Shown here piece after piece: positions 1 to 26,322 of a stretch of DNA of 64,000 bases; the stretch's first letter is position 1, and each line of letters begins with the position of its first letter. The position numbers were made by a program, and so were the translations under genes. The stretch spans positions 224 to 64,223 of the forward strand of contig NZ_CAXAXA010000005.1 in NCBI RefSeq assembly GCF_963973085.1. Reading direction: 5' to 3'. This DNA comes from an uncultured Sneathiella sp. (lineage in GTDB: Bacteria; Pseudomonadota; Alphaproteobacteria; Sneathiellales; Sneathiellaceae). A model generated the notes under the pieces. The model was not told the origin of the DNA and did no database searches. It saw only the letters and a list, made by a program, of their open reading frames with translations.

Positions 1-162
1 TGCTGACCTTCTATTGCGCCCAGACATAATAACCATCCCCTATGGAGGGAGGCTCATCCTTGCAGTCTGACAACAGCAGCGTATCTGTTTTGTCTGCAAT
101 CGATAAATATAAGCTATTGATTTTATGAAATTTATTTCTTAATCGACTTAGTAACGAGTGGG

Positions 163-221
163 AAATATATGGTATATAATAAATTACTAATGAATATATG
201 GCATAGAATAATATTACTTAT
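163..221. repeat. Two imperfect ~29-bp direct repeats in the AT-rich spacer downstream of the 503-aa gene, possibly iteron-like
   Basis: AATATATGGTATA at 164-176 and AATATATGGCATA at 193-205. Each is followed by an AATAA(A/T)ATTACT-like stretch. Confidence 0.4.
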
Positions 222-278
222 ATTAATAGCTATCTGTAAGTTCATTCAAGTATAATTTGTAAGTATTATTACCAAAAT

Positions 279-1790
279 CTATGTAATGTTCATGTTGTCT
301 ATATATGAATACCACTGATATTGCCTATTTGTATATTCTCTATATTCACCTCCAGATAACATTTCCTCAACATTGCCCATATCTACAAATTTATGCTCTA
401 CAGGTGCGTCATAGGTGAGGATCGACTTGCCGTCTACCTTGGCCATAGCTCCGGCAACCTCCATATAGTAGTGTTCCATATATTCCCTAAGCTCGTCAGC
501 TAAAGCATGGTGCACAAGAAAGCTATCATGCACTGGTAGACACGCATATTGCATGTCAGCAAATCTAAGCATGACTTTTTCTGCTATATCAGCGTCCTTT
601 TTCTGTAATTGCAAACCAAACCCGGAGCCAAAATACTCCCTAATAGGAGAGTGCGCATCTATGATAGCTTCCAATAGTTCTTGCCATGAGCAACCGGCGT
701 CCATCTCGTTAAAGTCGCTGTGCTGTTTGATATTCTTGTTAGAAGCATTCACCAGCGAATTAAAGGCAACTTTCTTAACATCACGGACAACATTTTCCAA
801 ACCCATATCATATGGATCTAGGGGAGGGGTAACGCCAACCTCTGCATACACCAAAGCCGGATGCATTCCTGAGTAATCGAGTTCTACTGTTTGCTTACCA
901 TTGATATGAATGTATTTCCTGTATTCTTTGGGAATTCCTAGCCACCATGCGCCATAAAAACGGCCACCTTCGTTCCAACTGCTATTGTTAAAGATCCGTC
1001 TCAGCGTACGCGCACTAACATCTATTGACGGCAGGGCTTCTTCATCTTCCAAATGCCTGTTCCAAACGTGCCGTCTCAAGGCTTCAAACTCTGTATCTTT
1101 CAAATATAAATCAATCCAAAAAGTTGATAGGTGCCTATTGATACGTTCTAAATTTTCCGACATTTTCGTTGTTTGACTATTATGCTCGTAAGGAATGATA
1201 TCTTTATTTTCATCCTTGAGAACAATATTGTTGCACCCTTCTAATTGCCGTATCTGCCACAGAGTAATATGGGCCTGCTCTTCCAGTGCCGACATCAGTT
1301 TCTGAGTTGCTCTAATGCGGGTCCGCTTACCTTTACCCTTCTCCTTGTCGAAATGCCCTTTCTTTTCTGTTCTTAAATATCCGCAGGCTTCTAGTCCTTT
1401 ATAGGCTGACTGGACATCCATATAGGAAAGAGCCACTGACTGATAAAAACTGACCATCCTGTGGTAGTTGTTAGTAGGGCTGTACTCATTCTTGTTTAAC
1501 GGCAACCCAAGCTGCATTCGCTTATTTGACTTTCGGGCTACATATAGGTCAAGCACCAGAGCCTTTACCATGCGAGTAAAACCATGATGCGCTCTTATAG
1601 AACGTTTTTTGGAGCGTTCCTCTTTGCCCTCAATCTCATTACATATATTTTGGAGAACTATCTCAAATAAAGGTGACGCAATATCACGCGACCAAAAGAT
1701 AGATCGAGACGGTTGATTTATTTTACGTGACTGGTCATCATAGTTAGCCGCAGCCATAGCTTCTTCTCTTAGCTGCTCGTCCTTAATCAT
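279..1790 (-). CDS. Hypothetical 503-aa protein with a wHTH-like N-terminal region and a C-terminal region carrying polymerase-palm-like motifs. It may be a replication or nucleotidyltransferase protein.
   Basis: ATG start overlaps the upstream stop (ATGA). Residues 120-165 look like a basic winged helix (YMDVQSAYKGLEACGYLRTEKKG...KRTRIRATQKL). Ordered motifs are GGRFY (275-279), ELDYSGMHP (303-311), RDVKKVAFNSLVNAS (336-350) and PVHDSFLV (419-426). No family was recognised outright. Confidence 0.75.
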   Translation of the reverse strand: MIKDEQLREEAMAAANYDDQSRKINQPSRSIFWSRDIASPLFEIVLQNICNEIEGKEERSKKRSIRAHHGFTRMVKALVLDLYVARKSNKRMQLGLPLNKNEYSPTNNYHRMVSFYQSVALSYMDVQSAYKGLEACGYLRTEKKGHFDKEKGKGKRTRIRATQKLMSALEEQAHITLWQIRQLEGCNNIVLKDENKDIIPYEHNSQTTKMSENLERINRHLSTFWIDLYLKDTEFEALRRHVWNRHLEDEEALPSIDVSARTLRRIFNNSSWNEGGRFYGAWWLGIPKEYRKYIHINGKQTVELDYSGMHPALVYAEVGVTPPLDPYDMGLENVVRDVKKVAFNSLVNASNKNIKQHSDFNEMDAGCSWQELLEAIIDAHSPIREYFGSGFGLQLQKKDADIAEKVMLRFADMQYACLPVHDSFLVHHALADELREYMEHYYMEVAGAMAKVDGKSILTYDAPVEHKFVDMGNVEEMLSGGEYREYTNRQYQWYSYIDNMNIT

Positions 1791-2743
1791 CCGTTTATAT
1801 CCTTAATTTTGGTGCTACTTAGGACTATTTCAGCCAGTTTCTTAGGGTCCACACCATCGCCGTAAGCCCTCTTCGTACCTTCTTCATCTGCGAACTCCAA
1901 CCAGTGCATTCCTTCAACCACGCTGTCAGGGTCTTGTCGCTTAACTTCTTCAAAGTACCTTTTTTTGTACTCCACGAAATCTATTCCATCGTTCTGTTTA
2001 TGAGTTCGGCTAGTCTCATCTTCAAACCCCTTTTTTGCCCAGACAGCAAAGCTGGTGCTATCGTCTTTAATTGCAGTTATACCTGCTGTAGCTCTATTTT
2101 TTAGCTTGTTTGCACCGCCATTAACTAGAGCCTTATATATGGAATAGATGAAACATCCGACTTCTTCAGCGACTACTATCGGAACCTCGAGAAACACGAA
2201 AAACATTGAAGATATCCCACCGAATATACCGACAAAAATAGCCAGCGCCGAGCCAACCCCAAGAAAATAAACATTCCATTGTTCATCTGTATCTTTAAAT
2301 ATTAGGATAAACAGAAATACCGACAATCCTATAATTATCCCAATCCCGCCGGAGCCATAGAATATGGGCTTCCAGAGGCCCCGAAACTCTTCGAGAAAAC
2401 TGTTTCGACGAACTTTCCAAATCCAGCTTGCTTCTTTTATTCCTGCAATTGAGTACAAAAGGAAACGAACGCGTTTTTCGAACCAGTCAGTTGGCGACAT
2501 CCAAATCACAACAGCTCTCATGGTAGCCGCAGCGACAAGCAGCTGACCGGCCAGCCTAATTATAGTTAACTGTTCAGTATCGTAGTGCCCGTTCTGAATT
2601 AGTGTGAATAGGATTGTGACCACTACTGGCACGGCTAGTGAAATCAGCAGGTTTCGGAAGCAAAAAATTACGACCACTGTTATGATAGTTGGTATGTCTG
2701 CAATTGTTACTACAAATAACACTAATATTTCTTCTAGTGTCAT
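1787..2743 (-). CDS. Hypothetical polytopic inner-membrane protein with about 5-7 TM segments and a ~100-aa charged soluble C-terminal domain
   Basis: Long hydrophobic runs (ILVLFVVTIADIPTIITVVVIFCF, LLISLAVPVVVTILFTLI, IGIIIGLSVFLFILIF, FLGVGSALAIFVGIFGGISSMFFVFL), followed by a K/E/D-rich tail. ATGA overlaps with both neighbouring genes. Confidence 0.7.
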   Translation of the reverse strand: MTLEEILVLFVVTIADIPTIITVVVIFCFRNLLISLAVPVVVTILFTLIQNGHYDTEQLTIIRLAGQLLVAAATMRAVVIWMSPTDWFEKRVRFLLYSIAGIKEASWIWKVRRNSFLEEFRGLWKPIFYGSGGIGIIIGLSVFLFILIFKDTDEQWNVYFLGVGSALAIFVGIFGGISSMFFVFLEVPIVVAEEVGCFIYSIYKALVNGGANKLKNRATAGITAIKDDSTSFAVWAKKGFEDETSRTHKQNDGIDFVEYKKRYFEEVKRQDPDSVVEGMHWLEFADEEGTKRAYGDGVDPKKLAEIVLSSTKIKDING

Positions 2744-4377
2744 TTTAAACCCTCATTTTCTAAACCAAAGCTCAAACGTTCTATTGCTTCTTTCTTTTGA
2801 GCAACCGTATATCCATCACCAAAATATACTTGTTGCGTTACGCCTTCTTGAGCGTGCCCTACGATAGCTTTAACGAGAGGTTCAGCGACGCCGGATTGAA
2901 GCAAGTTCGTGACCATCGTGTGGCGAAAGCTATGAAACACCAAACCTTGGCCACTCATGCCCACAGCCTTCAAGAACGGACCATTAAACCATCGGCTTAG
3001 ATTTCGCCCGTACCCGGTTCCCTGACTAAGGGATAGCTCATGCAGCAACCTTTGCTTACCTGACTTCTTTAACCTTTCGGCATGCTCTAAGAAGCCGAGT
3101 TCAAGCAACTCAGAATGGATGGGGATTAGGCGTGTTGCAGAGGAAGTCTTGAGCCTTACCCCATCAGCTTTCTCATTAATGTCAAAGCACCATAAACCGT
3201 CTACTTGTCTGACATCACCAAGTTGCAACTGTGCAATCTCGTTGAGGCGTGCCCCTGAATAGATAGCAATGAGGGGTCCCCATCTTTGATATTCTTTCTT
3301 AATTGCGCTGGTTTCATCTTTCAGGATCGCACTGAGTATCTTGCCAATCTGATCCTTAGAGAATGCTGTCCGTTCCCCATCACCTGATTTCTTGAGCTTG
3401 ATGGTAAGGCCGGTAAATACGTTCTTAGAGACATACCCGTTCTTTTCAGCCCACTTGAATAAGCCGTGGCATGCATTGAGATGTTTATTAATTGTTTTCA
3501 CATGCATCCGTTCTACACCCACAACCGTGATAGCATCTTCAAACTTAAGCCCCCTTGTTTTGGGGTTAGAATTAATGTTCTTGGGCACCTGCTGCAAAGT
3601 GCTCTTCACCTTCTGGGCACTCTTGGATGTAATAGAACTACAGGCGATGTCAGCACCCAAAATGGCAAGCAGTAAACTAAAGATTGCCCGATATTCCTTC
3701 TCTGACTTTTTTGTCCAATTGCCGCCCCTTATTCTCTCTTCCACAAACCGCCTGACAAGCTCACTGAGAGGGGTGTCCATACCTTCGCTTGAGGATGGTG
3801 GGCGGGAAGGCTCAGCAGGGCTTGAGAGGTCGTATTCTTCCATCGACTTGTCATAGTCAAGAACATGTTGGCAATAAGCTTTGTAAGAGCTCCTGAACTC
3901 CGTTTCCATAGTTTTATAGGTATCACTGCCTTGAGAGACGGGAAGCCCATACAGGGCGATCAGACGGTCCACAGGCGGCTTTTCGTCGTTAGCCGTATGG
4001 TTGAATATTTCTGGTGCGTCGGATGTTAAAATACTCGATCTTAGGACGTTTAGCTCGAGCCCGCTCAGGCGTCCTTTATCAGCCATAGACGACTTCCGTT
4101 GCTCTAGGAGGCTTGCGAAATGCGACTTAAGCAGGGTTCTTATTTCGTGATATTTCATATTTTTATTGGCAACGCTACTCAGCAATTCATCAGCCCAGTA
4201 TGATAACCACCGTGACAATTGCATGGCAAGGCGATTATCTCTCGTATCCAGAGACACTCTAATATGCGTGCATTTATTGTAAGGATGGAGGGCCTTAGGA
4301 ATAGGCCAACGGAAATAGAAGACGTTGTGTCTGGAAAGCATCAGGTAGGTAGATATATGCATGGATAAATGGCTCAC
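2740..4377 (-). CDS. int: Site-specific tyrosine recombinase (phage-type integrase) with a long N-terminal extension
   Basis: C-terminal catalytic signature: GARLNEIAQL (Arg box), HSFRHTMVTNLL (H-x-x-R), GHAQEGVTQQVY (His...Tyr). N-terminal FYFRWPIPKAL resembles the YYFR-type integrase N-domain. Position 4377 is a GTG; an ATG alternative is at 4362. Confidence 0.9.
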   Translation of the reverse strand: MSHLSMHISTYLMLSRHNVFYFRWPIPKALHPYNKCTHIRVSLDTRDNRLAMQLSRWLSYWADELLSSVANKNMKYHEIRTLLKSHFASLLEQRKSSMADKGRLSGLELNVLRSSILTSDAPEIFNHTANDEKPPVDRLIALYGLPVSQGSDTYKTMETEFRSSYKAYCQHVLDYDKSMEEYDLSSPAEPSRPPSSSEGMDTPLSELVRRFVEERIRGGNWTKKSEKEYRAIFSLLLAILGADIACSSITSKSAQKVKSTLQQVPKNINSNPKTRGLKFEDAITVVGVERMHVKTINKHLNACHGLFKWAEKNGYVSKNVFTGLTIKLKKSGDGERTAFSKDQIGKILSAILKDETSAIKKEYQRWGPLIAIYSGARLNEIAQLQLGDVRQVDGLWCFDINEKADGVRLKTSSATRLIPIHSELLELGFLEHAERLKKSGKQRLLHELSLSQGTGYGRNLSRWFNGPFLKAVGMSGQGLVFHSFRHTMVTNLLQSGVAEPLVKAIVGHAQEGVTQQVYFGDGYTVAQKKEAIERLSFGLENEGLK

Positions 4378-4430
4378 TTCAATGTGCCACCATCAAAACT
4401 AGGTATCTAATGCATTGATTTTAAAGCAAA

Positions 4431-4520
4431 TGGCGGAGGGTCGGGGATTCGAACCCCGGAAGGGCTTGCACCCTTGCTGGTTTTCAAGACCAGTGCATTC
4501 AACCGCTCTGCCAACCCTCC
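4431..4520 (-). tRNA. tRNA-Ser, anticodon UGA, with long variable arm and encoded CCA
   Basis: The reverse complement GGAGGGT..GGTCTTGAAAACC..CGGGGTTCGAATCCCCGACCCTCCGCCA folds manually. It gives a 7-bp acceptor stem, anticodon loop CTTGAAA, a long variable arm, a TTCGAAT T-loop and discriminator G. Confidence 0.9.
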
Positions 4521-4746
4521 GCGGGGCGGCGCTTTCAAAATGGCATCGGCAAGACGCAATTCAAGGCCGCAAACGGTCCTGATCGTTTAAAGTTCCCGCT
4601 CTGGCCTGTCAATATGTTTGATAGGGAAATCGATAATTCTGTCGCCGGGCATGGCCGCCGTCGAAAATCAAGACTTTTATGTCTGAAAGCGTTGCGAATC
4701 CGCGGGGTTTGTGGCAAAAAGGGTGGATCAGTAAAATGGAGTACCA

Positions 4747-5733
4747 ATGGCCAAGAAACCTGCGCGTTTTATTCTCTTCACCCTGTTCGGCATTTTTTTG
4801 ACGGCTATCGCAACACCGGGGTTCGCCGCGAAGGAGCCATTCGATCAGTGGCTGACTAAGCTGAAAACAGAAGCGCGGGAAGGCGGGATCAGCCAGGCCA
4901 TCCTCGACAGCGCCTTCGCGGACGTGAAACTCATTGAAAAAGTCGTCAAACTAGACCGCAAACAACCCGAGACCGTCCAGACATTCCAGGAATATATGGC
5001 ACAGCGCCTGCCGCAGTCGCTCGTTGACTCGGGCAAGGCCATGCTCAACCAAAACCGCGCCATACTGGAAGAAGTCGGGCGGGAGTTCGGGGTGCAGCCA
5101 CGTTTCATCGTTGCACTGTGGGGGGTGGAGACACGTTACGGTAAATATACCGGCGGGTTCAGCGTCATTGACGCACTCACCACGCTTGCCTATGACAATC
5201 GCCGGGCGGAATATTTTCGAAAGGAGCTGTTGCTCGCCCTCAAGATCCTTGATGACAACCATATCGCACTTGCCGATATGAAGGGTTCCTGGGCCGGTGC
5301 GATGGGACAATCGCAGTTCATGCCGTCAAGCTTCGTCAATTTCGCCATTGATTATGATGAAGATGGCCGCCGTGATATCTGGACAACCAAGGCTGACGTT
5401 TTTGCCTCTGCTGCGAACTATCTGTCGAAATCCGGCTGGCAGGGCGACCAGACGTGGGGCAGGGAGGTCACTTTGCCCAAGAATTTCGACCTGTCCCTGA
5501 TCGACCTTAAAATCGCCAAACCGATGGCGGAATGGGAAGCCCTTGGCGTTCGTAAAATCGACGGATCCGCCTTACCCTCGCGCCAGCTGGTTGGATCGCT
5601 GGTCCAGCCGAAGGGCGGCAACGGGCAGACATTTCTGGTCTATAACAATTACCGAACCATCCTTAAATGGAACCGGTCCACCTATTTTGCAATGTCCGTC
5701 GGCCATCTTGCCGACCTGATCGGGGATGGGTAA
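4747..5733 (+). CDS. Lytic murein transglycosylase (MltB/SLT_2 family), secreted
   Basis: Signal peptide ending PGFA-AK. Motifs ALWGVETRYG and GAMGQSQFMPSSF. Confidence 0.88.
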   Translation: MAKKPARFILFTLFGIFLTAIATPGFAAKEPFDQWLTKLKTEAREGGISQAILDSAFADVKLIEKVVKLDRKQPETVQTFQEYMAQRLPQSLVDSGKAMLNQNRAILEEVGREFGVQPRFIVALWGVETRYGKYTGGFSVIDALTTLAYDNRRAEYFRKELLLALKILDDNHIALADMKGSWAGAMGQSQFMPSSFVNFAIDYDEDGRRDIWTTKADVFASAANYLSKSGWQGDQTWGREVTLPKNFDLSLIDLKIAKPMAEWEALGVRKIDGSALPSRQLVGSLVQPKGGNGQTFLVYNNYRTILKWNRSTYFAMSVGHLADLIGDG

Positions 5734-5770
5734 GAGAGATGAAGTGCGTAGCGTAAAAGGTATAAGTAAT

Positions 5771-6766
5771 ATGGCGAAATTGAACCAACAGTCCGGACTG
5801 ATTGTCCTCGTCACCACCGCCCTGCTGCTGGCGGGCTGCTCCGAGGTCAGTCTGCTCAGTTATGGCGCGAAGAAATACCATGCCGCGGGAAAAGACACCG
5901 CCGCCGTCGGACCAAACGATGTGGATCGTGGCACTCCGAAACTCGGCAATCCTTATCAGGTGGACGGCATCTGGTACTACCCGAAAGTCGACAATGCCTA
6001 TGACGAGACGGGGATTGCTTCCTGGTATGGGGAGCCGTTTCACGGCCGCCGCACGGCGAACGGCGCCGTGTATGACATGCATAAGCTGACGGCGGCGCAC
6101 AAGACATTGCCCCTGCCAACCGATGTGCGGGTGACCAATCTTGAAAATGGCCGGTCAATCATCGTGACGGTGAATGACCGTGGCCCCTTCGCGCATTCCC
6201 GCATTATTGACCTTTCCTATCGTTCTGCGCAAATGCTGGGCATCGTCAAGAAGGGAACGGCAAAAGTCCGAGTGCAGGTGATTAACGGTGGAAATGGGGA
6301 TCAGACCATTATCGCCAAACCCAAAACTCCCTTGACGGAAAAGAATAATGTTGCCGCTGCACCGCAGGCTACCGTCGTTGCCGATACCCTGGCGCCGCCC
6401 GCTGGCGTTAAGCAGGCGCCAGCACCTAAAATTGAAGCCTTGCCAGCACCGGCCGCCGCCGTTGCCGAAACGCAGGTAACATCGGCGTCCGCCTATAGCG
6501 CACCAACCCCGACTGTCAGCGTTCAGCCGATTACTCAGAGTGATATTTTCATACAGGCCGGCGCTTTCGTTGATTTCAATAACGCCAATATCCTGAGTGC
6601 ACGTCTGTCGTCACTCGGCCCGACGAAAGTCAGTCAGGTTCTGGTCAACGGACAGGATTTCTATCGCGTGCGGGTCGGTCCGGTACCGGATATTGATAAG
6701 GCGGACCAGCTGCTGGCGGACCTGATCAATAATGGTCATACGGAAGCTCGGATTGTGATCGAGTAG
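5771..6766 (+). CDS. rlpA: Septal ring lytic transglycosylase RlpA-family lipoprotein with C-terminal SPOR domain
   Basis: Lipobox LLLAGCS. Double-psi beta-barrel motifs ASWYGEPFHGRRTANG and IIVTVNDRGPF. Ala/Pro linker, then a SPOR-like IFIQAGAF...FYRVRVGP. The ORF opens at 5726; the ATG at 5771 is preferred. Confidence 0.85.
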   Translation: MAKLNQQSGLIVLVTTALLLAGCSEVSLLSYGAKKYHAAGKDTAAVGPNDVDRGTPKLGNPYQVDGIWYYPKVDNAYDETGIASWYGEPFHGRRTANGAVYDMHKLTAAHKTLPLPTDVRVTNLENGRSIIVTVNDRGPFAHSRIIDLSYRSAQMLGIVKKGTAKVRVQVINGGNGDQTIIAKPKTPLTEKNNVAAAPQATVVADTLAPPAGVKQAPAPKIEALPAPAAAVAETQVTSASAYSAPTPTVSVQPITQSDIFIQAGAFVDFNNANILSARLSSLGPTKVSQVLVNGQDFYRVRVGPVPDIDKADQLLADLINNGHTEARIVIE

Positions 6767-6851
6767 GCAAGCCTTAAACTGGCCAAAAACACGCATTAAT
6801 GATAGAAATCACCCGATAACTCGAATTTACTGCGAGAAACCTGAAAAGAGA

Positions 6852-8027
6852 ATGACTGAAAGCCCGACCGCCATGAATTTCTGGACCTCCTCCTTCCGAT
6901 TTTTTTCCGCCCTTTTCCTTTCGCTGTTCTTGATTGCAGGGACTGCCGCTGCGGACCCAATTGAAACCGCGGCCCGGGAAGCGTTTATCTTCGATATGAA
7001 TACGGGTGCCGTTCTGCTGGAGAAGAATGCCGACCAGCTTATGTCTCCAGCCTCCATGAGCAAGTTGATGACCATTACCATGGTGTTCGAGTGGCTGAAG
7101 GACGGCACGCTCAATATGGAAGACACCCTGCCGGTCAGCGAGAAGGCCTGGAAAAAGGGCGGCTCCAAGATGTTTGTCGAAGTCGATACCCGCGTCAGCA
7201 TCGGAGATTTGCTGCGCGGCATTATTGTCCAGTCCGGCAATGACGCCTGTATCGTGGTGGCCGAAGGGCTTGGCGGATCGGAAGAGGGGTTTGCCGAGGC
7301 GATGACCTCGCGGGCTCGGGAACTCGGACTTGAGAAAAGCACCTTCAGGAACGCCACCGGCTGGCCCGATCCGAACCACAAGATGACAGCGCGGGAACTT
7401 GCCCTCCTGGCAAAGCATATCATTCAGGACTTTCCGGAATATTATACCATCTTTGCCGAGAAGGATTTCACCTTCAGCGATATCAAGCAGGGCAACCGGA
7501 ACCCGCTTCTCTATAAAGACAATGGCGCGGACGGCCTTAAAACAGGACATACCGAAGAATCCGGCTATGGCCTTGTCGGTTCGTCGGAGCGGGACGGGCG
7601 ACGCATTATCCTCGTCGTCAACGGCCTTGAAAATGCGAAGGAGAGAAGCCGCGAATCCGAGCGGTTGATGGAATGGGCCTTTCGCGAGTTTAACAACTAT
7701 GCGCTTTTCAAGTCCGGTGACATTGTCGATAACGCCCGGGTCTGGCTCGGCGACAAGGATGTGGTGCCGCTGACCGTGGAATCCGATCTCACCGTCACCC
7801 TGTCCCGTCAGGCCCGCAAGTCCATGACCGTCAAGGTCGTCTATAACGAACCCATCCCGGCTCCAATAATCAAGGGAACGCCGGTGGCGCAGCTCGTGGT
7901 TTCCGGCCCCGAAATCGAGACCATTGCCGTGCCCTTGGTCGCGATGGAGGATATCTCTCGCCCCGGCACGTTCAAGCGCCTAACCTCCGCAGTCGAGTAT
8001 CTCGTCTTCGGTCCTTCCGCCAATTAG
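6852..8027 (+). CDS. D-alanyl-D-alanine carboxypeptidase (PBP5/6 class)
   Basis: SxxK (SMSKLMT), SxN (QSGND) and KTG (LKTGHT) motifs, plus a signal-like N-terminus. Confidence 0.9.
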   Translation: MTESPTAMNFWTSSFRFFSALFLSLFLIAGTAAADPIETAAREAFIFDMNTGAVLLEKNADQLMSPASMSKLMTITMVFEWLKDGTLNMEDTLPVSEKAWKKGGSKMFVEVDTRVSIGDLLRGIIVQSGNDACIVVAEGLGGSEEGFAEAMTSRARELGLEKSTFRNATGWPDPNHKMTARELALLAKHIIQDFPEYYTIFAEKDFTFSDIKQGNRNPLLYKDNGADGLKTGHTEESGYGLVGSSERDGRRIILVVNGLENAKERSRESERLMEWAFREFNNYALFKSGDIVDNARVWLGDKDVVPLTVESDLTVTLSRQARKSMTVKVVYNEPIPAPIIKGTPVAQLVVSGPEIETIAVPLVAMEDISRPGTFKRLTSAVEYLVFGPSAN

Positions 8028-8034
8028 GGCGGCA

Positions 8035-8688
8035 GTGGCTCCGATGCAGTGCGCGAAGCGCAAAGGCGGAAAGTTCATTACGCTGGAAGGGGGCGATGGC
8101 AGTGGGAAATCCACGCAAAGCCGTCTTCTTGCCGAGTTCCTTGAGGCCCAGTCCATAGAGACTTTGCTGACACGGGAGCCCGGAGGCGCACCGGGCGCAG
8201 ATGAAATTCGTGAACTGATCCTGACCGGGGATCCGGATCGCTGGGATGCTATCGGCGAGACTTTGCTTTTCTATGCCTCCCGCAGGAACCACCTCCGACT
8301 GACGATCTGGCCAGCACTCGACGAAGACCGCTGGGTTATCTCCGATCGCTTCGCCGATTCAACCATGGCCTATCAGGGGTATGGCAATCAGCTAGGCGAA
8401 GAGGCTGTACAGCGAATCCACGACTTCGCCGTCGGCAGTTTCGCGCCGGACCTTACCTTCATCTTCGATATTCCGGCGGAGGAGGGGCTGAAGCGCACCA
8501 TGGGCCGCACCCATGACGAAGACCGCTTCGAGAAAATGACCCTGTCCTTTCACGAACGCCTGCGGGACGGCTTTCTCGATATCGCCCGGAAAAATCCGGA
8601 CCGCTGCGTCCTGATCGACGCGACCCGGTCTGTCGATGCCATCCAGAAGGAGCTGCGCGAGACAGTCGCCGCGCGCCTGTTGCCATGA
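8035..8688 (+). CDS. tmk: dTMP kinase
   Basis: P-loop LEGGDGSGKST and DRFADSTMAYQG. GTG at 8035; an alternative ATG is at 8044. Confidence 0.9.
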   Translation: MAPMQCAKRKGGKFITLEGGDGSGKSTQSRLLAEFLEAQSIETLLTREPGGAPGADEIRELILTGDPDRWDAIGETLLFYASRRNHLRLTIWPALDEDRWVISDRFADSTMAYQGYGNQLGEEAVQRIHDFAVGSFAPDLTFIFDIPAEEGLKRTMGRTHDEDRFEKMTLSFHERLRDGFLDIARKNPDRCVLIDATRSVDAIQKELRETVAARLLP

Positions 8689-9785
8689 CGGATTTACCGG
8701 TCTCTGACAAGCTGGAGGGATATCCGCATCCGCAGGACCGCATGGAGCTCATCGGCCATGATGCGGCGGAAAAGCGCTTCCTTGAAAACTATCTAAGTGG
8801 CCGGTTTCATCATGCCTGGCTCATTACGGGAGCAAAAGGCGTCGGCAAGGCAAGTTTCGCCTACCGCGCGGCCAAATTTCTGCTGAGCCAGCAGGGAGAG
8901 GGGGGCGGTGGCCTGTTCGGACCGCCGGACAGCCTTGATGTTCCCGAGGGCGATCCGGCACTCGCGCTGATCCGCGCCGGATCACATCCGGGCCTCGCGG
9001 TACTCAGGCGGCAATATGACGTAAAAAACAAAAAGTTTTTCAGCGTTATCCGCGTCGATGATGTTCGTGCCCTCAACCAGTTTTTCCAGTTGACCGCCTC
9101 TGAAGGAAGCTGGCGCATCGTTATCGTCGATCCGGTCGATGAAATGAACCAGAACGCCGCCAATGCGATCCTGAAAATACTCGAAGAACCGCCGAAGAAA
9201 ACGCTTTTCCTCTTGCTCTCCCATACACCGGCAAGTCTGCTGCCGACAATCCGCTCACGCTGTCGTCAACTGGCGCTACGACCGCTCAGCGATGATGACA
9301 TGCGACGGTTTCTCGCGCCCTACAGCGAGACGATTTCCCCTGACCAGCTGGACATGCTCCTGACGCTGGCGGAGGGAAGCCCTGGCATGGCGCTCAGGCT
9401 GCTGGAGGCGGGCGGCCTTGAAATTTTCGCCGATATCCTCGATATCTTCAGGAACTATCCGGTGCTCAACGCCGAGAAACTGCATACACTTGCGGACAAG
9501 AGCGGCCTGAAGGACGGGGAGGCAGGCTATCGCACAATCTGCGAGCTTTACCCCTGGTGGCTGACCCGTCTGGTCCGCGCCGCCAGCGATAATTTCAGTG
9601 ACGGCAATCTGGTTCCCGGAGAAGCGGACATCATGAAAAAAATGGTTTCCCGGCATTCGCCCGCTGACTGGGTTGAAATTTGGGAAAGCGGGAATGACCT
9701 GATAAAAAGGGCAGACGTCATCAACCTTGATCGTAAACAGGTTGTCCTCAACCTGTTTTTGAATGTAGAACGCATGGGCAGGTAA
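8685..9785 (+). CDS. holB: DNA polymerase III subunit delta-prime
   Basis: Follows tmk with an ATGA overlap. Motifs GAKGVGKASFA and IRSRCRQLALRPL. Confidence 0.88.
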   Translation: MTDLPVSDKLEGYPHPQDRMELIGHDAAEKRFLENYLSGRFHHAWLITGAKGVGKASFAYRAAKFLLSQQGEGGGGLFGPPDSLDVPEGDPALALIRAGSHPGLAVLRRQYDVKNKKFFSVIRVDDVRALNQFFQLTASEGSWRIVIVDPVDEMNQNAANAILKILEEPPKKTLFLLLSHTPASLLPTIRSRCRQLALRPLSDDDMRRFLAPYSETISPDQLDMLLTLAEGSPGMALRLLEAGGLEIFADILDIFRNYPVLNAEKLHTLADKSGLKDGEAGYRTICELYPWWLTRLVRAASDNFSDGNLVPGEADIMKKMVSRHSPADWVEIWESGNDLIKRADVINLDRKQVVLNLFLNVERMGR

Positions 9786-9811
9786 GCCGCCACAATAATT
9801 CGGAAAGACAG

Positions 9812-10597
9812 ATGTTAGTCGATAGCCATTGCCATTTGAATTTTGAACAGCTTTCCAGCGAGCTTGACGACGTGGTCGCGCGGGCGAGGGCGGTCGGCGT
9901 CGGACATATGCTGACCATCGGGACAAAACTCCGCGAGTTTGACGCTGTCCGGGCGATCGCGGAGCAGTATGACGATATTCATTGCTCCGTCGGTGTTCAT
10001 CCGCATGAAGCGGAAAGTGAGGGCGATGAAGTAACGGCGGCAAAGCTCATCGAATTGGCCGCGCATCCCAAGGTCGTCGGCATTGGCGAAACCGGCCTTG
10101 ATTATTTTTATGAGCATGCGCCGCGCGAGTTGCAGCAGAAATCCTTTCGTCTTCATATCGAGGCCGCGCGGGAAACCGGACTGCCACTGATCGTGCATAC
10201 CCGCGACGCAGACGATGATACCGTTAAGATTTTACATGAAGAGTACGGGAAGGGGCCTTTTACCGGAGTAATCCATTGCTTTAGTTCAGGATGGGAGGTC
10301 GCTGAGAAATCAATGGAAATTGGTTTCTATATCTCCATTTCCGGGATCGTGACCTTCAAGGCGTCGGAAGAGCTCCGCGATCATGTCAGCCGTATCCCCG
10401 TGGAAAAGCTGCTGGTCGAGACGGACAGCCCTTATCTCGCACCTGTGCCCAAACGCGGCAAGACGAATGAACCATCCTTCGTCGCCCATACCGCCGCCCA
10501 GGTGGCAAAACTGAAAGGCCTTGAGCCGGATCAGCTGGCGACCATCACCACCGACAATTTCTTTAACCTTTTCAATAAAATAGAGCGGAAACTTTAA
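9812..10597 (+). CDS. TatD-family metal-dependent hydrolase
   Basis: Motifs VDSHCHLNF, GETGLDYFY, HCFSS and ETDSPYLAP. Confidence 0.9.
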   Translation: MLVDSHCHLNFEQLSSELDDVVARARAVGVGHMLTIGTKLREFDAVRAIAEQYDDIHCSVGVHPHEAESEGDEVTAAKLIELAAHPKVVGIGETGLDYFYEHAPRELQQKSFRLHIEAARETGLPLIVHTRDADDDTVKILHEEYGKGPFTGVIHCFSSGWEVAEKSMEIGFYISISGIVTFKASEELRDHVSRIPVEKLLVETDSPYLAPVPKRGKTNEPSFVAHTAAQVAKLKGLEPDQLATITTDNFFNLFNKIERKL

Positions 10598-11355
10598 TGG
10601 AAGTGACGATACTCGGATGCGGCACCTCCGGCGGAGTTCCGCGCATTGGAAATGACTGGGGCGCCTGCGATCCGGAGGAGCCAAAAAACCGGCGTCGGCG
10701 CTGTTCTATTCTGGTGAAAGAGAAGGACACGACTGTCCTGATCGATACATCACCGGACATTCGCGAACAGCTTCTGGATGCGGATGTCAGCCGGGTTGAT
10801 GGCGTCGTCTGGACCCACGAACACGCCGATCAGTGCCATGGAATAGACGAACTCCGCGTCCTTGCTATCCGCAATCGCGAGCGCGTTAACGTTTGGAGTG
10901 ACAAGAAAACCCTCGACATATTGATGCGGAGATTTGATTATTGTTTCCGGCAACTTGAAGGGAATCCTTATCCTGCCATCTTAGCTGAACATCTGATCAC
11001 CGGACCGTTTACGATTGGCGATATTAACTTTCTTCCCTTCGATCAGGATCACGGCAGCATCACCAGTCTCGGCTTTCGCATGGGGCCCATCGGCTATTCC
11101 AATGATCTGGTCAATCTCGACGACCGTGGCTTTGAAATTCTCGAGGGCGTTGATACCTGGATCGTCGATGCCATGCGCTACACACCGCATCCGACGCATG
11201 TAAATCTGGAAACCGCGCTCGAATGGATTGACCGGCTTAAACCGCGGCGCGCGGTGTTAACGAATATGCATGTCGACCTCGATTACCGGACATTGCTGAA
11301 AGAACTGCCCGACGGCGTCGAGCCGGCCTATGACGGCATGGTCATAGAGGCCTGA
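10597..11355 (+). CDS. MBL-fold metallo-hydrolase (PhnP-like)
   Basis: HxHxDH-type motif WTHEHADQCHG. Confidence 0.8.
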   Translation: MEVTILGCGTSGGVPRIGNDWGACDPEEPKNRRRRCSILVKEKDTTVLIDTSPDIREQLLDADVSRVDGVVWTHEHADQCHGIDELRVLAIRNRERVNVWSDKKTLDILMRRFDYCFRQLEGNPYPAILAEHLITGPFTIGDINFLPFDQDHGSITSLGFRMGPIGYSNDLVNLDDRGFEILEGVDTWIVDAMRYTPHPTHVNLETALEWIDRLKPRRAVLTNMHVDLDYRTLLKELPDGVEPAYDGMVIEA

Positions 11356-16126: not shown

Positions 16127-17614
16127 TTAACGCCGCCACAGGGCCGGGTTGAGCAGGGAAAGCACAGCAAAAAATTCCAGCCGTCCCACCAGCATAGTGA
16201 CACATAATAGCCATTTGGAAAAATTCGGTAAGGCCCCGTAGCTGATAAAATTCTCTTCACCGACAATCACATCCGTGATCAGGGGCTGGGCGGCTGAACC
16301 CGCGTTAGCGAGGTTCGTTACCGCAAGAGAAACCGACGACTGCAGATCGAGCCCATTGAAGGCGAGCAGCAGCGTCACCACGACAAGGGTACCACAATAC
16401 AGAACGAAAAAACTCCAGGCGGAGAGTATCTGCTCACGTGAGATACGCTGATCACCATATGTCAGCGGAAAAACGCTGCTTGGAAAACTGAGACGATTGA
16501 TTTCCGAATTTGACACCTTCATTAGAATACTGAGGCGCATGAGCTTGATTCCCCCAGCCGTCGAGCCGGTCGAACCGCCAATGGTGATTAGAACCAGGAT
16601 CACAAGGAGCGCCCCGATCGGCCAATAATACTGACCGCTGCCGGAGACAAGCGGCATGTTATACCCCGTTGTCGTCACGGCGGAGACAGTATTGAAAACT
16701 GCATATCGCAAGGTATCGGGAATGCTCATATCCGTCTGGGTCATCATCAGGAAGAAAACAAACAGGCTGCCCAGCACGATCACCACCAGCAGATAGCGAT
16801 ATTCTGAGTCCTTGAAATAGGATTGCCGATCGCCATTGAAGAATGACCAGTGGAGAGAGAAATTGACGGCGCCGATCACCATGAAAATCATCAGTACAAC
16901 TTCAATCCCACGGCTGGCGAACGCGGTTCCGGCTGTATTTGACGTCACAAACCCGCCGGTCGACAGGGTACTGAAGGCGTAGCACAGCGCATCAAAGGCC
17001 GACATACCGGAAAACCAAAGCGCAACAATGCAAATGGCCGTCAGCAGGCCATATATCTTCAACAGGGAGAGCACTGCGTAACCAAAACGACGCGAGACCT
17101 GACGGCGGCTGCTCTTGGCGAGCGCCCGGGTGAGAGGATTGTTTCCCGGTAGATTGAAGGCACTCGCCAGGGCAGAAAGGAAGACAATGATCGAAAACCC
17201 GCCCGCCCATTGGATGAGGCTCCGCCACAGCAGGATGGCCCGCGTCTGAATATCAAGATCATCGATAACAGTCGCGCCGTTTGTAGTGAAGCCGGATATG
17301 GCCTCAAAGTAAGAATTGGTCGCCGAGGGGATGGCATCGCTCAGATAGAAGGGCAAGGCGGCAAACGCCGGAAGCACGATCCAGATTAAGGTCGCCGCGA
17401 AGAAAGTCTCCCGTCGCCCCAATATTGTCATTTCCCGCCGCATGGCGAGAACCATGCCGCCGCCGAAGAACAGTGTCACGATCGCCGACACGACAAAGCT
17501 GGCGGCAAGCCCTGCCTGCCCCTGCGCCAGGGCGAAAGCCATCGGCACCAGCATTAGAGCCGCCAGGAATCCCAGAGCCCAGCCCAGAAAGGTAAAGACA
17601 GGTGCAAATAACAT
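16127..17614 (-). CDS. trkH: Potassium uptake protein TrkH
   Basis: Polytopic protein with repeated TTGF/TGG pore-loop-like segments (FTTNGAT, STGGFV, TTTGYN, GGSTGSTAGGIK). Adjacent to trkA. Confidence 0.9.
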   Translation of the reverse strand: MLFAPVFTFLGWALGFLAALMLVPMAFALAQGQAGLAASFVVSAIVTLFFGGGMVLAMRREMTILGRRETFFAATLIWIVLPAFAALPFYLSDAIPSATNSYFEAISGFTTNGATVIDDLDIQTRAILLWRSLIQWAGGFSIIVFLSALASAFNLPGNNPLTRALAKSSRRQVSRRFGYAVLSLLKIYGLLTAICIVALWFSGMSAFDALCYAFSTLSTGGFVTSNTAGTAFASRGIEVVLMIFMVIGAVNFSLHWSFFNGDRQSYFKDSEYRYLLVVIVLGSLFVFFLMMTQTDMSIPDTLRYAVFNTVSAVTTTGYNMPLVSGSGQYYWPIGALLVILVLITIGGSTGSTAGGIKLMRLSILMKVSNSEINRLSFPSSVFPLTYGDQRISREQILSAWSFFVLYCGTLVVVTLLLAFNGLDLQSSVSLAVTNLANAGSAAQPLITDVIVGEENFISYGALPNFSKWLLCVTMLVGRLEFFAVLSLLNPALWRR

Positions 17615-22668: not shown

Positions 22669-22768
22669 AACCCCCTCCGACCGGCTTGTTCATGACGCGA
22701 TCACGGTCCAAGGATTTCGCATCACTTTCAACTTTACGGTCAAAATACCACATTGTGGCATTTAAGCA

Positions 22769-24211
22769 TCACTTGAGCCCGCGCACAACCTGAATATCCA
22801 GCTCCCGGATTTTTTTACGCAAGGTATTCCGGTTAACCCCCAGCAAGTCAGCCGCTTTGATCTGGTTTCCGTTGGTTGCCTCCAGCGACAGCGACAACAG
22901 CGGCCTTTCGACCTCGCGGATCACCCGCTCATACAGCCCGGATGGTGGCAGACTGCCCGAATGCGCCGCAAAGTATTTTGCGACATGCCGCTCCACCGCC
23001 ATACCGAGACTTTCATCCGATCCGGTAATTTCCTCTGTATCGCCAATCTCCTGGGGCTGCAGTTCCTGCTGGATGACCGAAAGGTTGATAACGTCGTCTG
23101 AATAAAGGGCGGCAAGGCGGCGCACAAGATTTTCAAGCTCCCGCACATTGCCCGGCCATTTATGCTTTTTAAGCGCCTCTAATGATTCTTTATCAATACT
23201 CTTGACCGGCAGCCCCTCCTCCATCGCCTGGGCGAGAAAATGCCGGACAAGGTCGGGAATATCTTCCGCCCGCTCCCGCAGCGGCGGCAGGCGCAACGGT
23301 ACCACGTTCAATCGGTAATACAGATCCTCGCGGAACAACCCCTGCCGCACGAACTGCCGCAAGTCCCGGTTGGTCGCGGCAACAATCCGCACATCTGTCC
23401 GGATCGCCGTCCGTCCGCCGACGGTCGTATATTCCCCTTGTTGCAATACACGCAGAAGCCGGGTCTGGGCCTCGATCGGCATATCCCCGATTTCATCGAG
23501 GAACAATGTCCCGCCCTGGGCCTGCTCAAACCGGCCAATGGCACGGGAATCCGCGCCGGTAAAAGCGCCTTTCTCATGACCGAACAGCTCCGATTCAATA
23601 AGCTCCTTTGGAATGGCCGCCATGTTGATCGGCACAAACGGTCCCGCTTTACGCTTGCCGTACTCGTGAAGGGCGCGTGCTACAAGCTCCTTGCCGGTGC
23701 CGCTTTCTCCCGATACCAACACCGTAAGATCTGTTCCCATGAGGCGCGCCAGCACCCGGTATATCTCCTGCATTGCCGGAGATCGGCCGATCAGAGGCGT
23801 TTTGGTCTCATCCTCCTCTTCTGCGCCCGAACGTTTTGCGGCTTTCTTCGGCTTGGAAAGTGCCCTTTCCACCACTTGAAGCAATACCTTCAGATCAAAC
23901 GGCTTTGGCAGATAATCATAGGCCCCCCGCTCCGTCGCCTTGATTGCCGTCAGCAAGGTGTTCTGTGCGCTCATCACGACAACCGGCAGTTCGGGTCGGA
24001 TTTTCTTGATACGCGGCAGCAGATCGAGGCCGTTTTCATCCGGCATAACCACATCGGTCAAGATGATATCGCCCAATCCTTCCAGCACCCAGTTGTAGAG
24101 CGTAGCCGCGTTGCCAGTAGAGCGCACAACGTAGTTAGCCCGTGCAAGTGCCTGCTCTAGGACAGTGCGAATACTCTGATCATCATCTGCGACTAAAATT
24201 GTGCCGGGCAT
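22769..24211 (-). CDS. ntrC: Nitrogen regulation response regulator NtrC (sigma-54 activator)
   Basis: REC domain. Walker [15 protein letters not shown] loop (HEKGAFTGA) and C-terminal Fis-type HTH. Confidence 0.92.
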
Positions 24212-24212
24212 A

Positions 24213-25334
24213 TTATTCCGTATCCGTTTTATTAATGTAGTAAACCGGCAGACGGATCAGCGCCTTGCCACCCTCTCCCGATGTGTCAAACTCGACGATA
24301 CCCCCATGATCCCCGACAATCTTGGCCACCAGAGCCAGGCCAAGTCCGCTGCCGCCAGCCTTCGTGGTGACAAAAGGATCGAAGATATGCGGCATGATTT
24401 CCTCCGGAATACCGGGCCCGTTGTCGTGTATCCCGACTTCCAGCGGCAGTTGCACCTTCTCCTGCGCGCCGGGAACGGCAAGGCGGATACCGTGACGATA
24501 GGCCGTGCTCAAGGTGATCTCCCCGCTAGCTTCCGGGGTTGCCTCCGCCGCGTTCTTCACCAAGTTTAAAAGCACCTGAACGAGTTGGTCGCGATTGCCA
24601 TACACAAAGGGAAGCGACGGGTCGTAATTTTCGCGAAAGGTGATGTTGCGACCAAAGCCTGCCTCGGCCACCCGCCGGACATGTTCCAGAACCTCATGGA
24701 TATTAACGGCATCACGGTCGATCGGCCGGTCATCCGAAAACGCCTCCATGCGGTCGACAAGCGCGCAAATCCGGTCCGTCTCGTCGCAAATCAGCCGGGT
24801 CAGTGCTCGGTCGGCATCAGACGCGTTCATTTCCAACAGCTGCGCCGATCCGCGAATGCCGGAGAGCGGGTTTTTCACCTCATGAGCCAGCATGATCGCC
24901 ATCGCCGTAACAGACCGCGCCGCGCCGCGATGGGTAAGCTGCCGGTCCATCTTGGCTGCAATGGTCCGCTCCTCGATCTGGACCACCACATTCGGTGTTC
25001 CGTACATCAGCGAGACCTGCAAATTGACATTCTTCACGCCGGTTTTGGGAGTTCCAAGATCAACGCTATATTCGGAAACACAATCCCCAAGGGTCCGGAC
25101 CTGCTCCACCAAGCCCAGTAGCGGGCTGTCGAACGGAACAATCTCCTCCACCGTCATCCGGGTCAGCATTTTCGCCGACAGGGCGAAAAACTCCTCCCCC
25201 GCCGGGTTGGTCATGCAGATATACCCGTCGTCATCAATCACGATCAGCGGATCGGGTAAAGCGTTCAGCACAGACAGCGCATCCACATCCGTTTTCTTGC
25301 GTTTTGCGCCGCTAAAGGGATTTGGCAGGGCCAT
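24213..25334 (-). CDS. ntrB: Nitrogen regulation sensor kinase NtrB
   Basis: PAS domain plus H-box [12 protein letters not shown] and G-box GSGLGLALV. Lies directly upstream of ntrC. Confidence 0.9.
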
Positions 25335-25335
25335 G

Positions 25336-26322
25336 TTATGCGCTTTCCTTCAATTGCAGGTCATTGTAAAACACGTTTATCTCATCGCGCACTTGATGCC
25401 GGTCCGTCAGGCGGACGACCTTCTGCCGAAAAGTTTCGCCGCCCGGCAATCGCGCGGAATACCAGCCCAGATGCTTCCTGGCGACCCGGACGCCAACCTC
25501 TTCCCCGTAAAGGGAGATCAGGGCGTCATAATGCTCCAGAAGGACGGAGCGTTGCTCATCGAAATCCGGGTCCGGCAGCGTCTGCCCGGATTTGAAATGC
25601 TCCGCCACCTGCGACACGAACCAGGGCCGGCCATAGCTGCCCCGTCCGATCATCACACCATCGGCACCAGACTGGGCCCGAGCCTCGACCGCATCCTCAA
25701 CTGTCTGGATATCCCCATTGACGATAACGGGCAGCGACACCGCCTCCTTGACCTCGCCGACATATCGCCAGTCCGCCGCGCCTTTGAAGAACTGGCATCG
25801 CGTACGGCCATGCACCGTCAGCATCCGGATGCCCGCATCCTCGGCGATTTTTGCAAGCTCCGGCGCATTGCGGCTCTCCTCGTCCCAGCCCGTCCGCATT
25901 TTAAGGGTTACCGGTATGCTGACGGCATTAACCGTCGCCTTGAGTATCTTTCCGGCATGATCGAGATCGCGCATCAGTGAGGAGCCCGCCATACCGGCCG
26001 TTACCTTTTTTACCGGGCAGCCCATATTGATATCGATGATCTTCGCGCCCATTTCCTCATTCAGCCTTGCCGCTTCGGCCATAATCTCCGGATCGCAGCC
26101 TGCAAGCTGGACCGCCATTGGCTGGTCATCATTCGCGGAGCGGACGATACGAAGAGACCGCCGCGTTTCCGCGACCATGGCCTTGCTTGCCACCATTTCC
26201 GAGAACACCATCCCGGCCCCGTACCGCGTCACCAGACGACGAAAAGGCAGGTCTGTGATACCGGCCATAGGTGCCAGAAAAACCGGAGGGTCGATCGTAA
26301 TTGAATCGATAGTAATGACCAT
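25336..26322 (-). CDS. dusB: tRNA dihydrouridine synthase DusB
   Basis: Motifs [13 protein letters not shown] and [10 protein letters not shown]. Confidence 0.92.

Follow-up and report, generated by a model that had tools for sequence, protein, structure and literature searches.

We analysed a 64,000-nucleotide (nt) stretch of the genome of an uncultured Sneathiella sp. (contig NZ_CAXAXA010000005.1 of assembly GCF_963973085.1; hereafter the window), the left end of which holds part of an island inserted at a tRNA-Ser gene. Our subject is one gene of this island, an open reading frame (ORF) of 503 amino acids (aa) whose product fits the Transposon-Virus polymerase (TV-Pol) family of mobile-element polymerases. 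Its start codon overlaps the stop codon of the upstream ORF by 4 nt. The gene and its parts, in the order in which they are encoded, are:

279 to 1790, minus strand: TV-Pol-type polymerase gene, a single ATG-initiated ORF of 503 aa (ORF listing)
1206 to 1790, minus strand: N-terminal domain, residues 1-195 (DSSP of the models)
1047 to 1178, minus strand: thumb, two antiparallel helices, residues 205-221 and 232-248 (DSSP)
954 to 1001, minus strand: beta-hairpin, residues 264-279, with invariant R265 and G276-R277-x-Y279 (GGRFY; DSSP strands E264-267 and E275-279)
861 to 896, minus strand: motif A, the first palm strand, residues 299-306, ending in the putative catalytic D305 (conservation and alignment to Pol I D705)
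747 to 785, minus strand: motif B, equivalent to the O-helix, residues 336-348, R336xxxK340 (helix H336-348, aligned to Pol I R754/K758)
582 to 608, minus strand: LQxxDxxxA helix, residues 395-403 (aligned with the 'MQGTAADI' segment of Pol I, Q849)
510 to 542, minus strand: motif C, a beta-hairpin, residues 417-427 (CLPVHDSFLVH), with H421-D422 at the turn (strands E418-420 and E423-427)

Motifs and predicted fold of the polymerase core

A first reading of this DNA, made from the letters alone (the sequence-only reading), had placed four polymerase-like motifs at particular residues of the protein. Direct translation reproduced all four: SWNEGGRFYGAWW at residues 271-283, VELDYSGMHPALVY at 302-315, RDVKKVAFNSLVNAS at 336-350 and LPVHDSFLV at 418-426, with GGRFY encoded by nt 954-968. 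The numbering given there for the reference aspartates, D537/D812 of T7 RNA polymerase (RNAP) and D705/D882 of E. coli Pol I, was confirmed on the fetched sequences. The GGRFY hairpin is the counterpart of the TGR motif of Pol I (R668) and of the T/DxxGR motif of T7 RNAP, and H310, which is near-invariant among homologues, occupies the position of Klenow E710. Motif B had been described as lacking the usual Tyr-Gly, which proved right: of the family A pattern RxxxKxxxFxxxYG, RxxxK is present and YG is absent, and the Tyr position (Pol I Y766, T7 RNAP Y639) is taken, 12 residues past R336, by N348, an Asn that is itself invariant.

Conservation was assessed in 36 homologues and again in 59, after phage and viral relatives at 22–30% identity had been added. 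Invariant in both sets were R265, G276, R277, Y279, R291, E303, D305, R336, K340, N348, P419, H421, D422 and F424. Near-invariant among the 59 sequences were H310 (56/59), D325 (56/59), Q396 (55/59), D399 (58/59) and A403 (58/59). The motif set is therefore under strong selection and does not reflect chance. The residues singled out in the sequence-only reading are the conserved ones in both alignments, and the two aspartates for which it had called for a survey of homologues, D305 and D422, were each retained in 59/59.

An AlphaFold2 model based on the 36-sequence alignment was obtained with a predicted local distance difference test (pLDDT) score of 87.8 and a predicted template modelling (pTM) score of 0.84. 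According to DSSP, it comprises an N-terminal domain (about residues 25-195), two helices (205-221 and 232-248), a hairpin (264-267/275-279), a strand (299-306), a helical insert (309-412) that includes the helix at 336-348, a second hairpin (418-420/423-427), a helix (428-446) and a final strand (452-454). As modelled, this order corresponds to an RRM-type palm whose first strand is followed by the inserted fingers, and D305 and D422 are, judging by conservation and alignment, its predicted metal-binding Asp pair.

A Foldseek search of the Protein Data Bank (PDB) with the model gave 68 matches at E <= 1e-3. The best 50 were all family A DNA polymerases (probability 0.94-1.00, E 9e-6 to 5e-4), with no RNAP among them; the matches include the Plasmodium apicoplast polymerase, Bst, Taq, the Pol I enzymes of Aquifex and M. 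smegmatis, and Pol theta. TM-scores for the PDB matches were low, at about 0.3, which fits only part of query and target being comparable. Among the predicted viral structures of BFVD, the best matches were full-length phage homologues (TM 0.6-0.7), followed by phage PolAs, virophage replication proteins (Zamilon, E 1.8e-4; Qinghai Lake virophage, E 1e-3) and T7-like RNAPs (E 8e-4 to 1e-3).

For residue mapping only, and not as proof of homology, we used an hhalign alignment of the family profile, with viral relatives added, to a PolA profile (E 0.027), which was weak and collinear over six motifs. This maps GGRFY to TGRLSS (R668) of E. coli Pol I, WWQxIP to LQNIP, R291 to R682, D305-Y-S to D705-Y-S, R336/K340 to R754/K758, N348 to Y766, Q396 to Q849 and H421-D422 to H881-D882. 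With the query profile as it stood before the viral relatives were added, and a small PolA profile, motif A alone was aligned; comparison of the family profile with single sequences of Pol I, T7 DNA polymerase and T7 RNAP gave meaningless local matches.

Overall, conservation and fold matches bear out the earlier proposal: over its ~300 C-terminal residues, the protein has a right-hand core like that of other members of the Pol I/T7 RNAP superfamily, with much reduced fingers. The likeness to the motif order of T7-like RNAPs, on which that proposal leaned, holds at the level of the superfamily but not of closest kin, as family A DNA polymerases are nearer by fold (the best 50 PDB matches).

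Membership in the TV-Pol family and its relatives

TV-Pols were defined by Iyer, Abhiman and Aravind (2008, Biol Direct 3:39; PMC2579912) as proteins of 400-600 residues from alphaproteobacterial mobile elements, phages and virophages, with Brucella, Loktanella, Sulfitobacter, Roseovarius, Paracoccus and Methylobacterium among the hosts listed. Their core consists of a coiled-coil two-helix thumb, a beta-hairpin bearing an Arg, a two-Asp palm, and fingers that carry both a conserved Asp and RxxxK. They have no exonuclease, and a subset adds an N-terminal domain, TV-PolN, which was predicted to be all-helical; genes with TV-PolN adjoin a lambda-type integrase, a gamma-delta resolvase or a transposase. 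Priming as well as DNA synthesis was predicted for TV-Pols from gene context (PMC2579912).

The 503-aa ORF fits this family, an assignment that rests on the defining features and on indirect homology. In the predicted structure, the two helices at 205-221 and 232-248 lie directly N-terminal to the palm, as the TV-Pol thumb does. The hairpin at 264-267/275-279 carries R277 (59/59); the palm carries D305 and D422, both invariant and aligned to Pol I D705/D882, and has PolA fold matches; and the fingers carry D325 (56/59) together with R336 and K340 (both 59/59) in the helix at 336-348. The polymerase had no Pfam nuclease match, and no dedicated exonuclease family was found among the neighbouring products of the loci examined. 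(A nearby TatD_DNase gene belongs to the chromosomal flank, outside the island.) An integrase gene lies in the window, a resolvase gene in identical and related loci, and the hosts of homologues (Rhodobacterales, Brucella, Rhizobiales) agree with the alphaproteobacterial list of the paper.

The indirect homology runs through gp030 of Microcystis phage Ma-LMM01, a phage whose genome is named as a carrier of a TV-Pol element (PMC2579912). This protein (506 aa, annotated as hypothetical) has the motifs in the same order, as GLRVY, NYDVVKCH, TVKTAVLAVINGA and QHDGALIH, and adjoins two genes annotated as transposases (gp030-gp032, at 22746-26129 of our locus L215). An hmmsearch of the Ma-LMM01 ORFs with the hidden Markov model (HMM) of our family gave no match, and gp030 was detected by profile-profile comparison alone: hhalign aligned the two families over 306 columns (E 0.0045) with every motif in register. 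In a MAFFT alignment of 47 sequences that included the gp030 family, R277, Y279, R291, D305, K340, N348, H421 and D422 were invariant. Relatives of gp030 are rare, with six alone in a database of 5.8 billion proteins. That gp030 is the TV-Pol meant for Ma-LMM01 in the 2008 paper we infer from its size and from the adjacent transposase-annotated genes.

The sequence-only reading had recognised no named family in this architecture, and here it was mistaken: the protein corresponds to a TV-Pol with an N-terminal domain (PMC2579912). In the model of that domain, a long hairpin of helices (H40-56, H65-88) leads into a winged-helix-like unit (H108-117, H123-135, E139-143, E157-161), so that the domain is not purely helical; modelled alone, it had a pLDDT of 89.2. 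Foldseek gave it no significant match in the PDB (best E 0.064), and nearly all of the weak matches were winged-helix proteins (PadR, MarR, ArsR, TFE, ORC); one of these folds, the PadR-like 1xma, was also weakly matched by HMM (E 0.14). Part of the domain (profile positions ~100-204) is matched in phage and viral homologues too. We consider it probably to be TV-PolN, and a role in targeting DNA plausible. A winged-helix head of the kind seen in plasmid Rep proteins had been proposed; the winged-helix part of that proposal is weakly supported, and the Rep relationship is not supported, with no Rep among the weak matches.

Relatives are numerous and largely without names. A database search returned 535, nearly all nameless or labelled 'hypothetical' and mostly from Alphaproteobacteria and marine metagenomes. 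With clustering at 50% identity, an exhaustive profile search reached 10,030 clusters at E <= 1e-3, and 3,906 of these pass E <= 1e-30. Most of the top 150 are of 400-550 aa, and most cover nearly the whole profile. Scans of the polymerase with Pfam (at E <= 1), NCBIfam and PADLOC gave no match, and its one PHROG match, PHROG 4756 (E 6e-49), is labelled 'unknown function'. With no family model and an uninformative PHROG label, some 10,000 clusters end up annotated as hypothetical proteins.

Phage records with homologues, at 20-33% identity, number 227 (Rheinheimera 115, Vibrio 86, Aeromonas 14, and others); a genome holds them at 1-3 places, and Vibrio phage genomes of ~120-140 kb are included. 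The presence of several copies in one phage genome hints at selfish mobile genes inside phage genomes. The phage copies are annotated as hypothetical and set among small ORFs, and the genes around one Vibrio phage copy are all labelled hypothetical as well. Two of our homologue loci (L207 and L208) share one IMG/VR contig.

The island and its exchanged block

Window positions 1-4000 have a GC content of 0.41-0.45, against about 0.55 elsewhere in the window. The remaining island features, from the tRNA gene towards the left edge, are:

4431 to 4520, minus strand: tRNA-Ser(TGA) gene, the integration target (ARAGORN)
4431 to 4447, minus strand: att core TCCCCGACCCTCCGCCA, 17 nt, the 3' end of the tRNA-Ser gene (a single copy in the window)
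2740 to 4377, minus strand: tyrosine integrase, DUF6538 plus Phage_integrase, the first island gene (Pfam, PHROG 1)
1787 to 2743, minus strand: predicted membrane protein of 318 aa (ORF listing; no family match)
164 to 211, no strand: two imperfect direct repeats of 19-26 nt, AATATATGGTATATAATAA and AATATATGGCATAGAATAA, in the AT-rich spacer right after the polymerase stop codon, 29 nt apart

The window edge cuts the island 278 nt beyond the polymerase stop codon, and the island's other end falls beyond that left edge. A related island is found in Sneathiella sp. HT1-7 (our locus L013), where the 17-mer at 7321-7337 recurs 10,129 nt away, at 17450-17466, and bounds an island of ~10 kb. In HT1-7 the low GC continues past the second 17-mer, with a second integrase-like ORF beyond it, and a second element may lie there in tandem.

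Across loci, the conserved order runs from a tyrosine integrase through one or more variable small ORFs to TV-Pol and a 223-aa ORF; next come a serine resolvase, encoded on the opposite strand, and variable cargo. Counted over 39 species genomes or loci with at least 5 kb on both sides of the polymerase, a tyrosine integrase gene lay within 5 kb of it in 30/39 and a resolvase gene in 14/39. In the window, the variable slot between integrase and polymerase is filled by the 318-aa ORF, whose product has a hydrophobic N terminus and a polar C terminus, and whose start and stop codons overlap those of its two neighbours (translational coupling at both ends). It is unrelated to the ~210-aa ORFs found at the same position in Brucella and Phyllobacterium, which are 38% identical to each other. 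Neither the 223-aa nor the 318-aa neighbour has a family match.

The direct repeats also occur in the HT1-7 island (L013 11577-11631), where the polymerase is 99% identical, and were not found in relatives at 40-66% identity. They are a candidate protein-binding or origin site; since they are not conserved in the more distant relatives, we do not claim an origin. A scan for promoters and terminators gave nothing usable.

Identical copies of the polymerase were found in marine metagenome contigs. Between the window lineage and HT1-7, the integrase and the chromosome flank (window 2792-11345) are 80.7% identical, whereas identity is 97.9% across a block that begins 190 nt before the end of the upstream ORF and takes in TV-Pol, the 223-aa ORF and the resolvase; the part of it inside the window (1-1980) is 99.1% identical. 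The near-identical block is ~3.6 kb long (L013 9811-13425) and ends where the cargo begins. Terminal repeats were sought at its edges, and none was convincing. A 97.9% identical block beside an 80.7% identical integrase and chromosome indicates that the polymerase-resolvase block moves or recombines independently of host and integrase, and the comparison suggests recent transfer of the ~3.6-kb block between islands of different species. TV-Pol-resolvase elements described in Brucella (PMC2579912) are echoed by this independent block.

The cargo differs from island to island. In HT1-7 (L013 14320-16907) its genes encode a MerR regulator, a CDF efflux protein that carries an HMA domain, signal peptidase II and a cytochrome c; in the window lineage (our locus L001, 13710-14538) it consists of a 75-aa ORF and an AAA_23/SbcC-like ATPase gene, cut by the contig end. 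Phyllobacterium cargo includes a type IIG restriction-modification enzyme; in Brucella pseudogrignonensis, the gene of an unannotated 1253-aa protein comes first after the resolvase; and in Sulfitobacter, a DndB gene adjoins the polymerase. The block is kept while the cargo differs, and the polymerase is a core gene of the island, not cargo.

Role of the enzyme and known systems

Our best explanation of the whole, which we hold with moderate confidence, is that the protein is a TV-Pol member and conserved island core that serves as a primase-polymerase for the element's DNA. The sequence-only reading had suggested a replication enzyme of the island, and this is still the best reading of the gene context. 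The integrase would excise the element, or a replicative recombination step would occur, and the N-terminal domain would position the enzyme on the element's DNA. The polymerase core, likely acting as a primase-polymerase for the element's own DNA, would then start and extend a DNA strand, so that the element gains its own round of DNA synthesis, and the resolvase would separate the products. Priming, template choice, sugar specificity and origin binding are what we infer beyond the observed fold, conserved catalytic residues and gene context.

This replication proposal gains support from CCPol, a polymerase of SCCmec that Iyer et al placed in TV-Pol, because CCPol has DNA polymerase activity and, in complex with its partner MP, de novo priming activity (PMC7581432). 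CCPol-MP primes with dNTPs, and CCPol uses dNTPs, not NTPs (PMC7581432).

Several points weigh against it. CCPol seems to have arisen from a complete Pol I-like enzyme and depends on an OB-fold partner (PMC10061031, PMC10201439), and its properties may not transfer. Up to Bebel et al (2020), CCPol was the one TV-Pol to have been characterised biochemically (PMC7581432), and our literature search found no later case. The sequence link to family A is weak: beyond the hhalign E value of 0.027 given above, the Pfam DNA_pol_A model misses the protein (E <= 1), and phmmer and profile hmmsearch against PDB sequences returned no polymerase, only spurious haemagglutinin coiled-coil matches and one weak PadR. 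No helicase or single-strand DNA-binding protein (SSB) gene was evident beside the polymerase at the examined loci. Finally, homologues turned up in just 3/72,556 plasmid records, those of Paracoccus versutus (2.2 Mb), Thioclava electrotropha (128 kb) and Neorhizobium galegae (1.6 Mb), all of them large replicons. The protein is therefore evidently neither a stand-alone replicon initiator nor a self-sufficient plasmid replicase.

Some of these observations would suit a primer-dependent DNA polymerase that fills gaps or repairs, completing ends or gaps left by the integrase or resolvase with no replication of the whole element. CCPol alone only extends primers and requires MP for priming (PMC10061031); the missing helicase and SSB genes, the near absence from plasmids and the tight linkage to recombinases point the same way. 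Host Pol I, however, would be available for such work, and the conserved extra DNA-binding-like N-terminal domain suggests targeted initiation. Moreover, tyrosine and serine recombinases leave no gaps that need filling. We regard gap filling as unlikely, though the best placed of the rivals to a primase-polymerase.

Still less likely is a nucleotide-polymerising effector or sensor of a defence island, analogous to the reverse-transcriptase-based systems. Relatives' cargo does include genes that could be so read (the type IIG enzyme of Phyllobacterium, DndB in Sulfitobacter and the AAA_23/SbcC-like ATPase of the window lineage). PADLOC, however, gave no match, and the polymerase stays beside the integrase and resolvase while the cargo changes fully, for example to the metal-resistance genes of HT1-7; the homologues at 1-3 places per genome in phage records, including the ~120-140 kb Vibrio phages, speak against it as well. 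The sensor or effector alternative of the sequence-only reading found no support.

We consider it improbable, more so than a defence role, that the protein is a single-subunit RNAP of the T7 or N4 mini-vRNAP kind, transcribing island genes or making RNA primers. Motif C reads HDSF as in T7 RNAP, the GR-x-Y hairpin resembles T/DxxGR, and T7-like RNAPs are among the BFVD matches; with H310 for the steric-gate Glu and N348 for the O-helix Tyr, sugar selectivity could go either way. Set against this are the best 50 PDB fold matches, all to DNA polymerases, a core of ~300 residues with neither a promoter-recognition domain nor a specificity loop, and the use of dNTPs, not NTPs, by CCPol. Least credible of all, and in our view very improbable, is a catalytically dead, Rep-like DNA-binding initiator that keeps a polymerase-like fold: the winged-helix-like N-terminal domain and the unusual motif B without Tyr would suit it, but all 59 sequences, even those at ~22% identity, retain both Asp, R277, R291, R336 and K340, which indicates selection on catalysis. 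None of the four rivals is favoured by the data.

A bolder form of the primase-polymerase proposal, which is tentative and to our minds rather doubtful, would make TV-Pols with the N-terminal domain single-polypeptide, site-specific primase-polymerases: the winged-helix-like head would recognise a site on the element, the minimal PolA core with its unusual His310 and Asn348 would begin synthesis with no need of a separate SSB or helicase, and the ~3.6-kb block would be a self-copying cassette moving between unrelated integrase islands. If true, this would be a third, independent route to priming by family A enzymes, and a very common one (~10,000 clusters).

The label itself has uses. The family has no Pfam or NCBIfam model and is of 'unknown function' in PHROG, a gap in the annotation databases. 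Naming it identifies the core replication-type gene of widespread small tRNA-targeting islands in marine and soil Alphaproteobacteria. At 503 aa and with a confident model, the enzyme is also tractable for studying how small a family A polymerase can be and still carry out synthesis, and possibly priming.

Among known systems, CCPol-MP of SCCmec (Bebel et al, 2020; Rice, 2023) resembles the present one in its A-family-type core, its integrating element and its adjacent site-specific recombinases; its two catalytic Asp are required, and the making of DNA primers has been proposed or shown. It differs in keeping remnants of a 3'-5' exonuclease, in having no TV-Pol N-terminal domain and in the spacing of its Asp pair (D169/D324, 155 residues apart, versus 117 here). 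CCPol also needs the OB-fold protein MP and precedes the Cch2 helicase, while neither an MP-like nor a helicase gene was recognised in this island. The virophage replication proteins (Sputnik V13-type; Zamilon, Qinghai Lake) share a TV-Pol-type core by fold, but fuse it to a C-terminal D5/SF3 helicase and do not have the N-terminal domain seen here.

T7-like RNAPs and N4 mini-vRNAP share the motif order and the HDSF spelling of motif C. The protein here is about one third the size of T7-like RNAPs, without their promoter-binding N-terminal domain, specificity loop and intercalating hairpin, and they are outranked by DNA polymerases among its structural matches. Family A DNA polymerases (Pol I, Klenow, Taq, Bst, T7 gp5) share the fold and the order of motifs (TGR, an R682-like Arg, DYS, RxxxK, a Q849-like Gln, HD). 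In comparison with them, the exonuclease domain is absent here, the fingers are much shorter (117 versus 177 residues from Asp to Asp), the O-helix Tyr is an invariant Asn and the steric-gate Glu is a His.

The closest counterpart is the TV-Pol subgroup with an N-terminal domain. TV-PolN was predicted to be all-helical, as against the helices and winged-helix-like beta unit of our model. Shared are the minimal PolA-like core, the lack of an exonuclease, the extra N-terminal domain and the linkage to integrase or resolvase genes. The polymerase of this island is thus a known kind of mobile-element polymerase and no new kind of system, and its remaining interest lies in the size of the family, the absence of family models and the linkage to a mobile polymerase-resolvase block.

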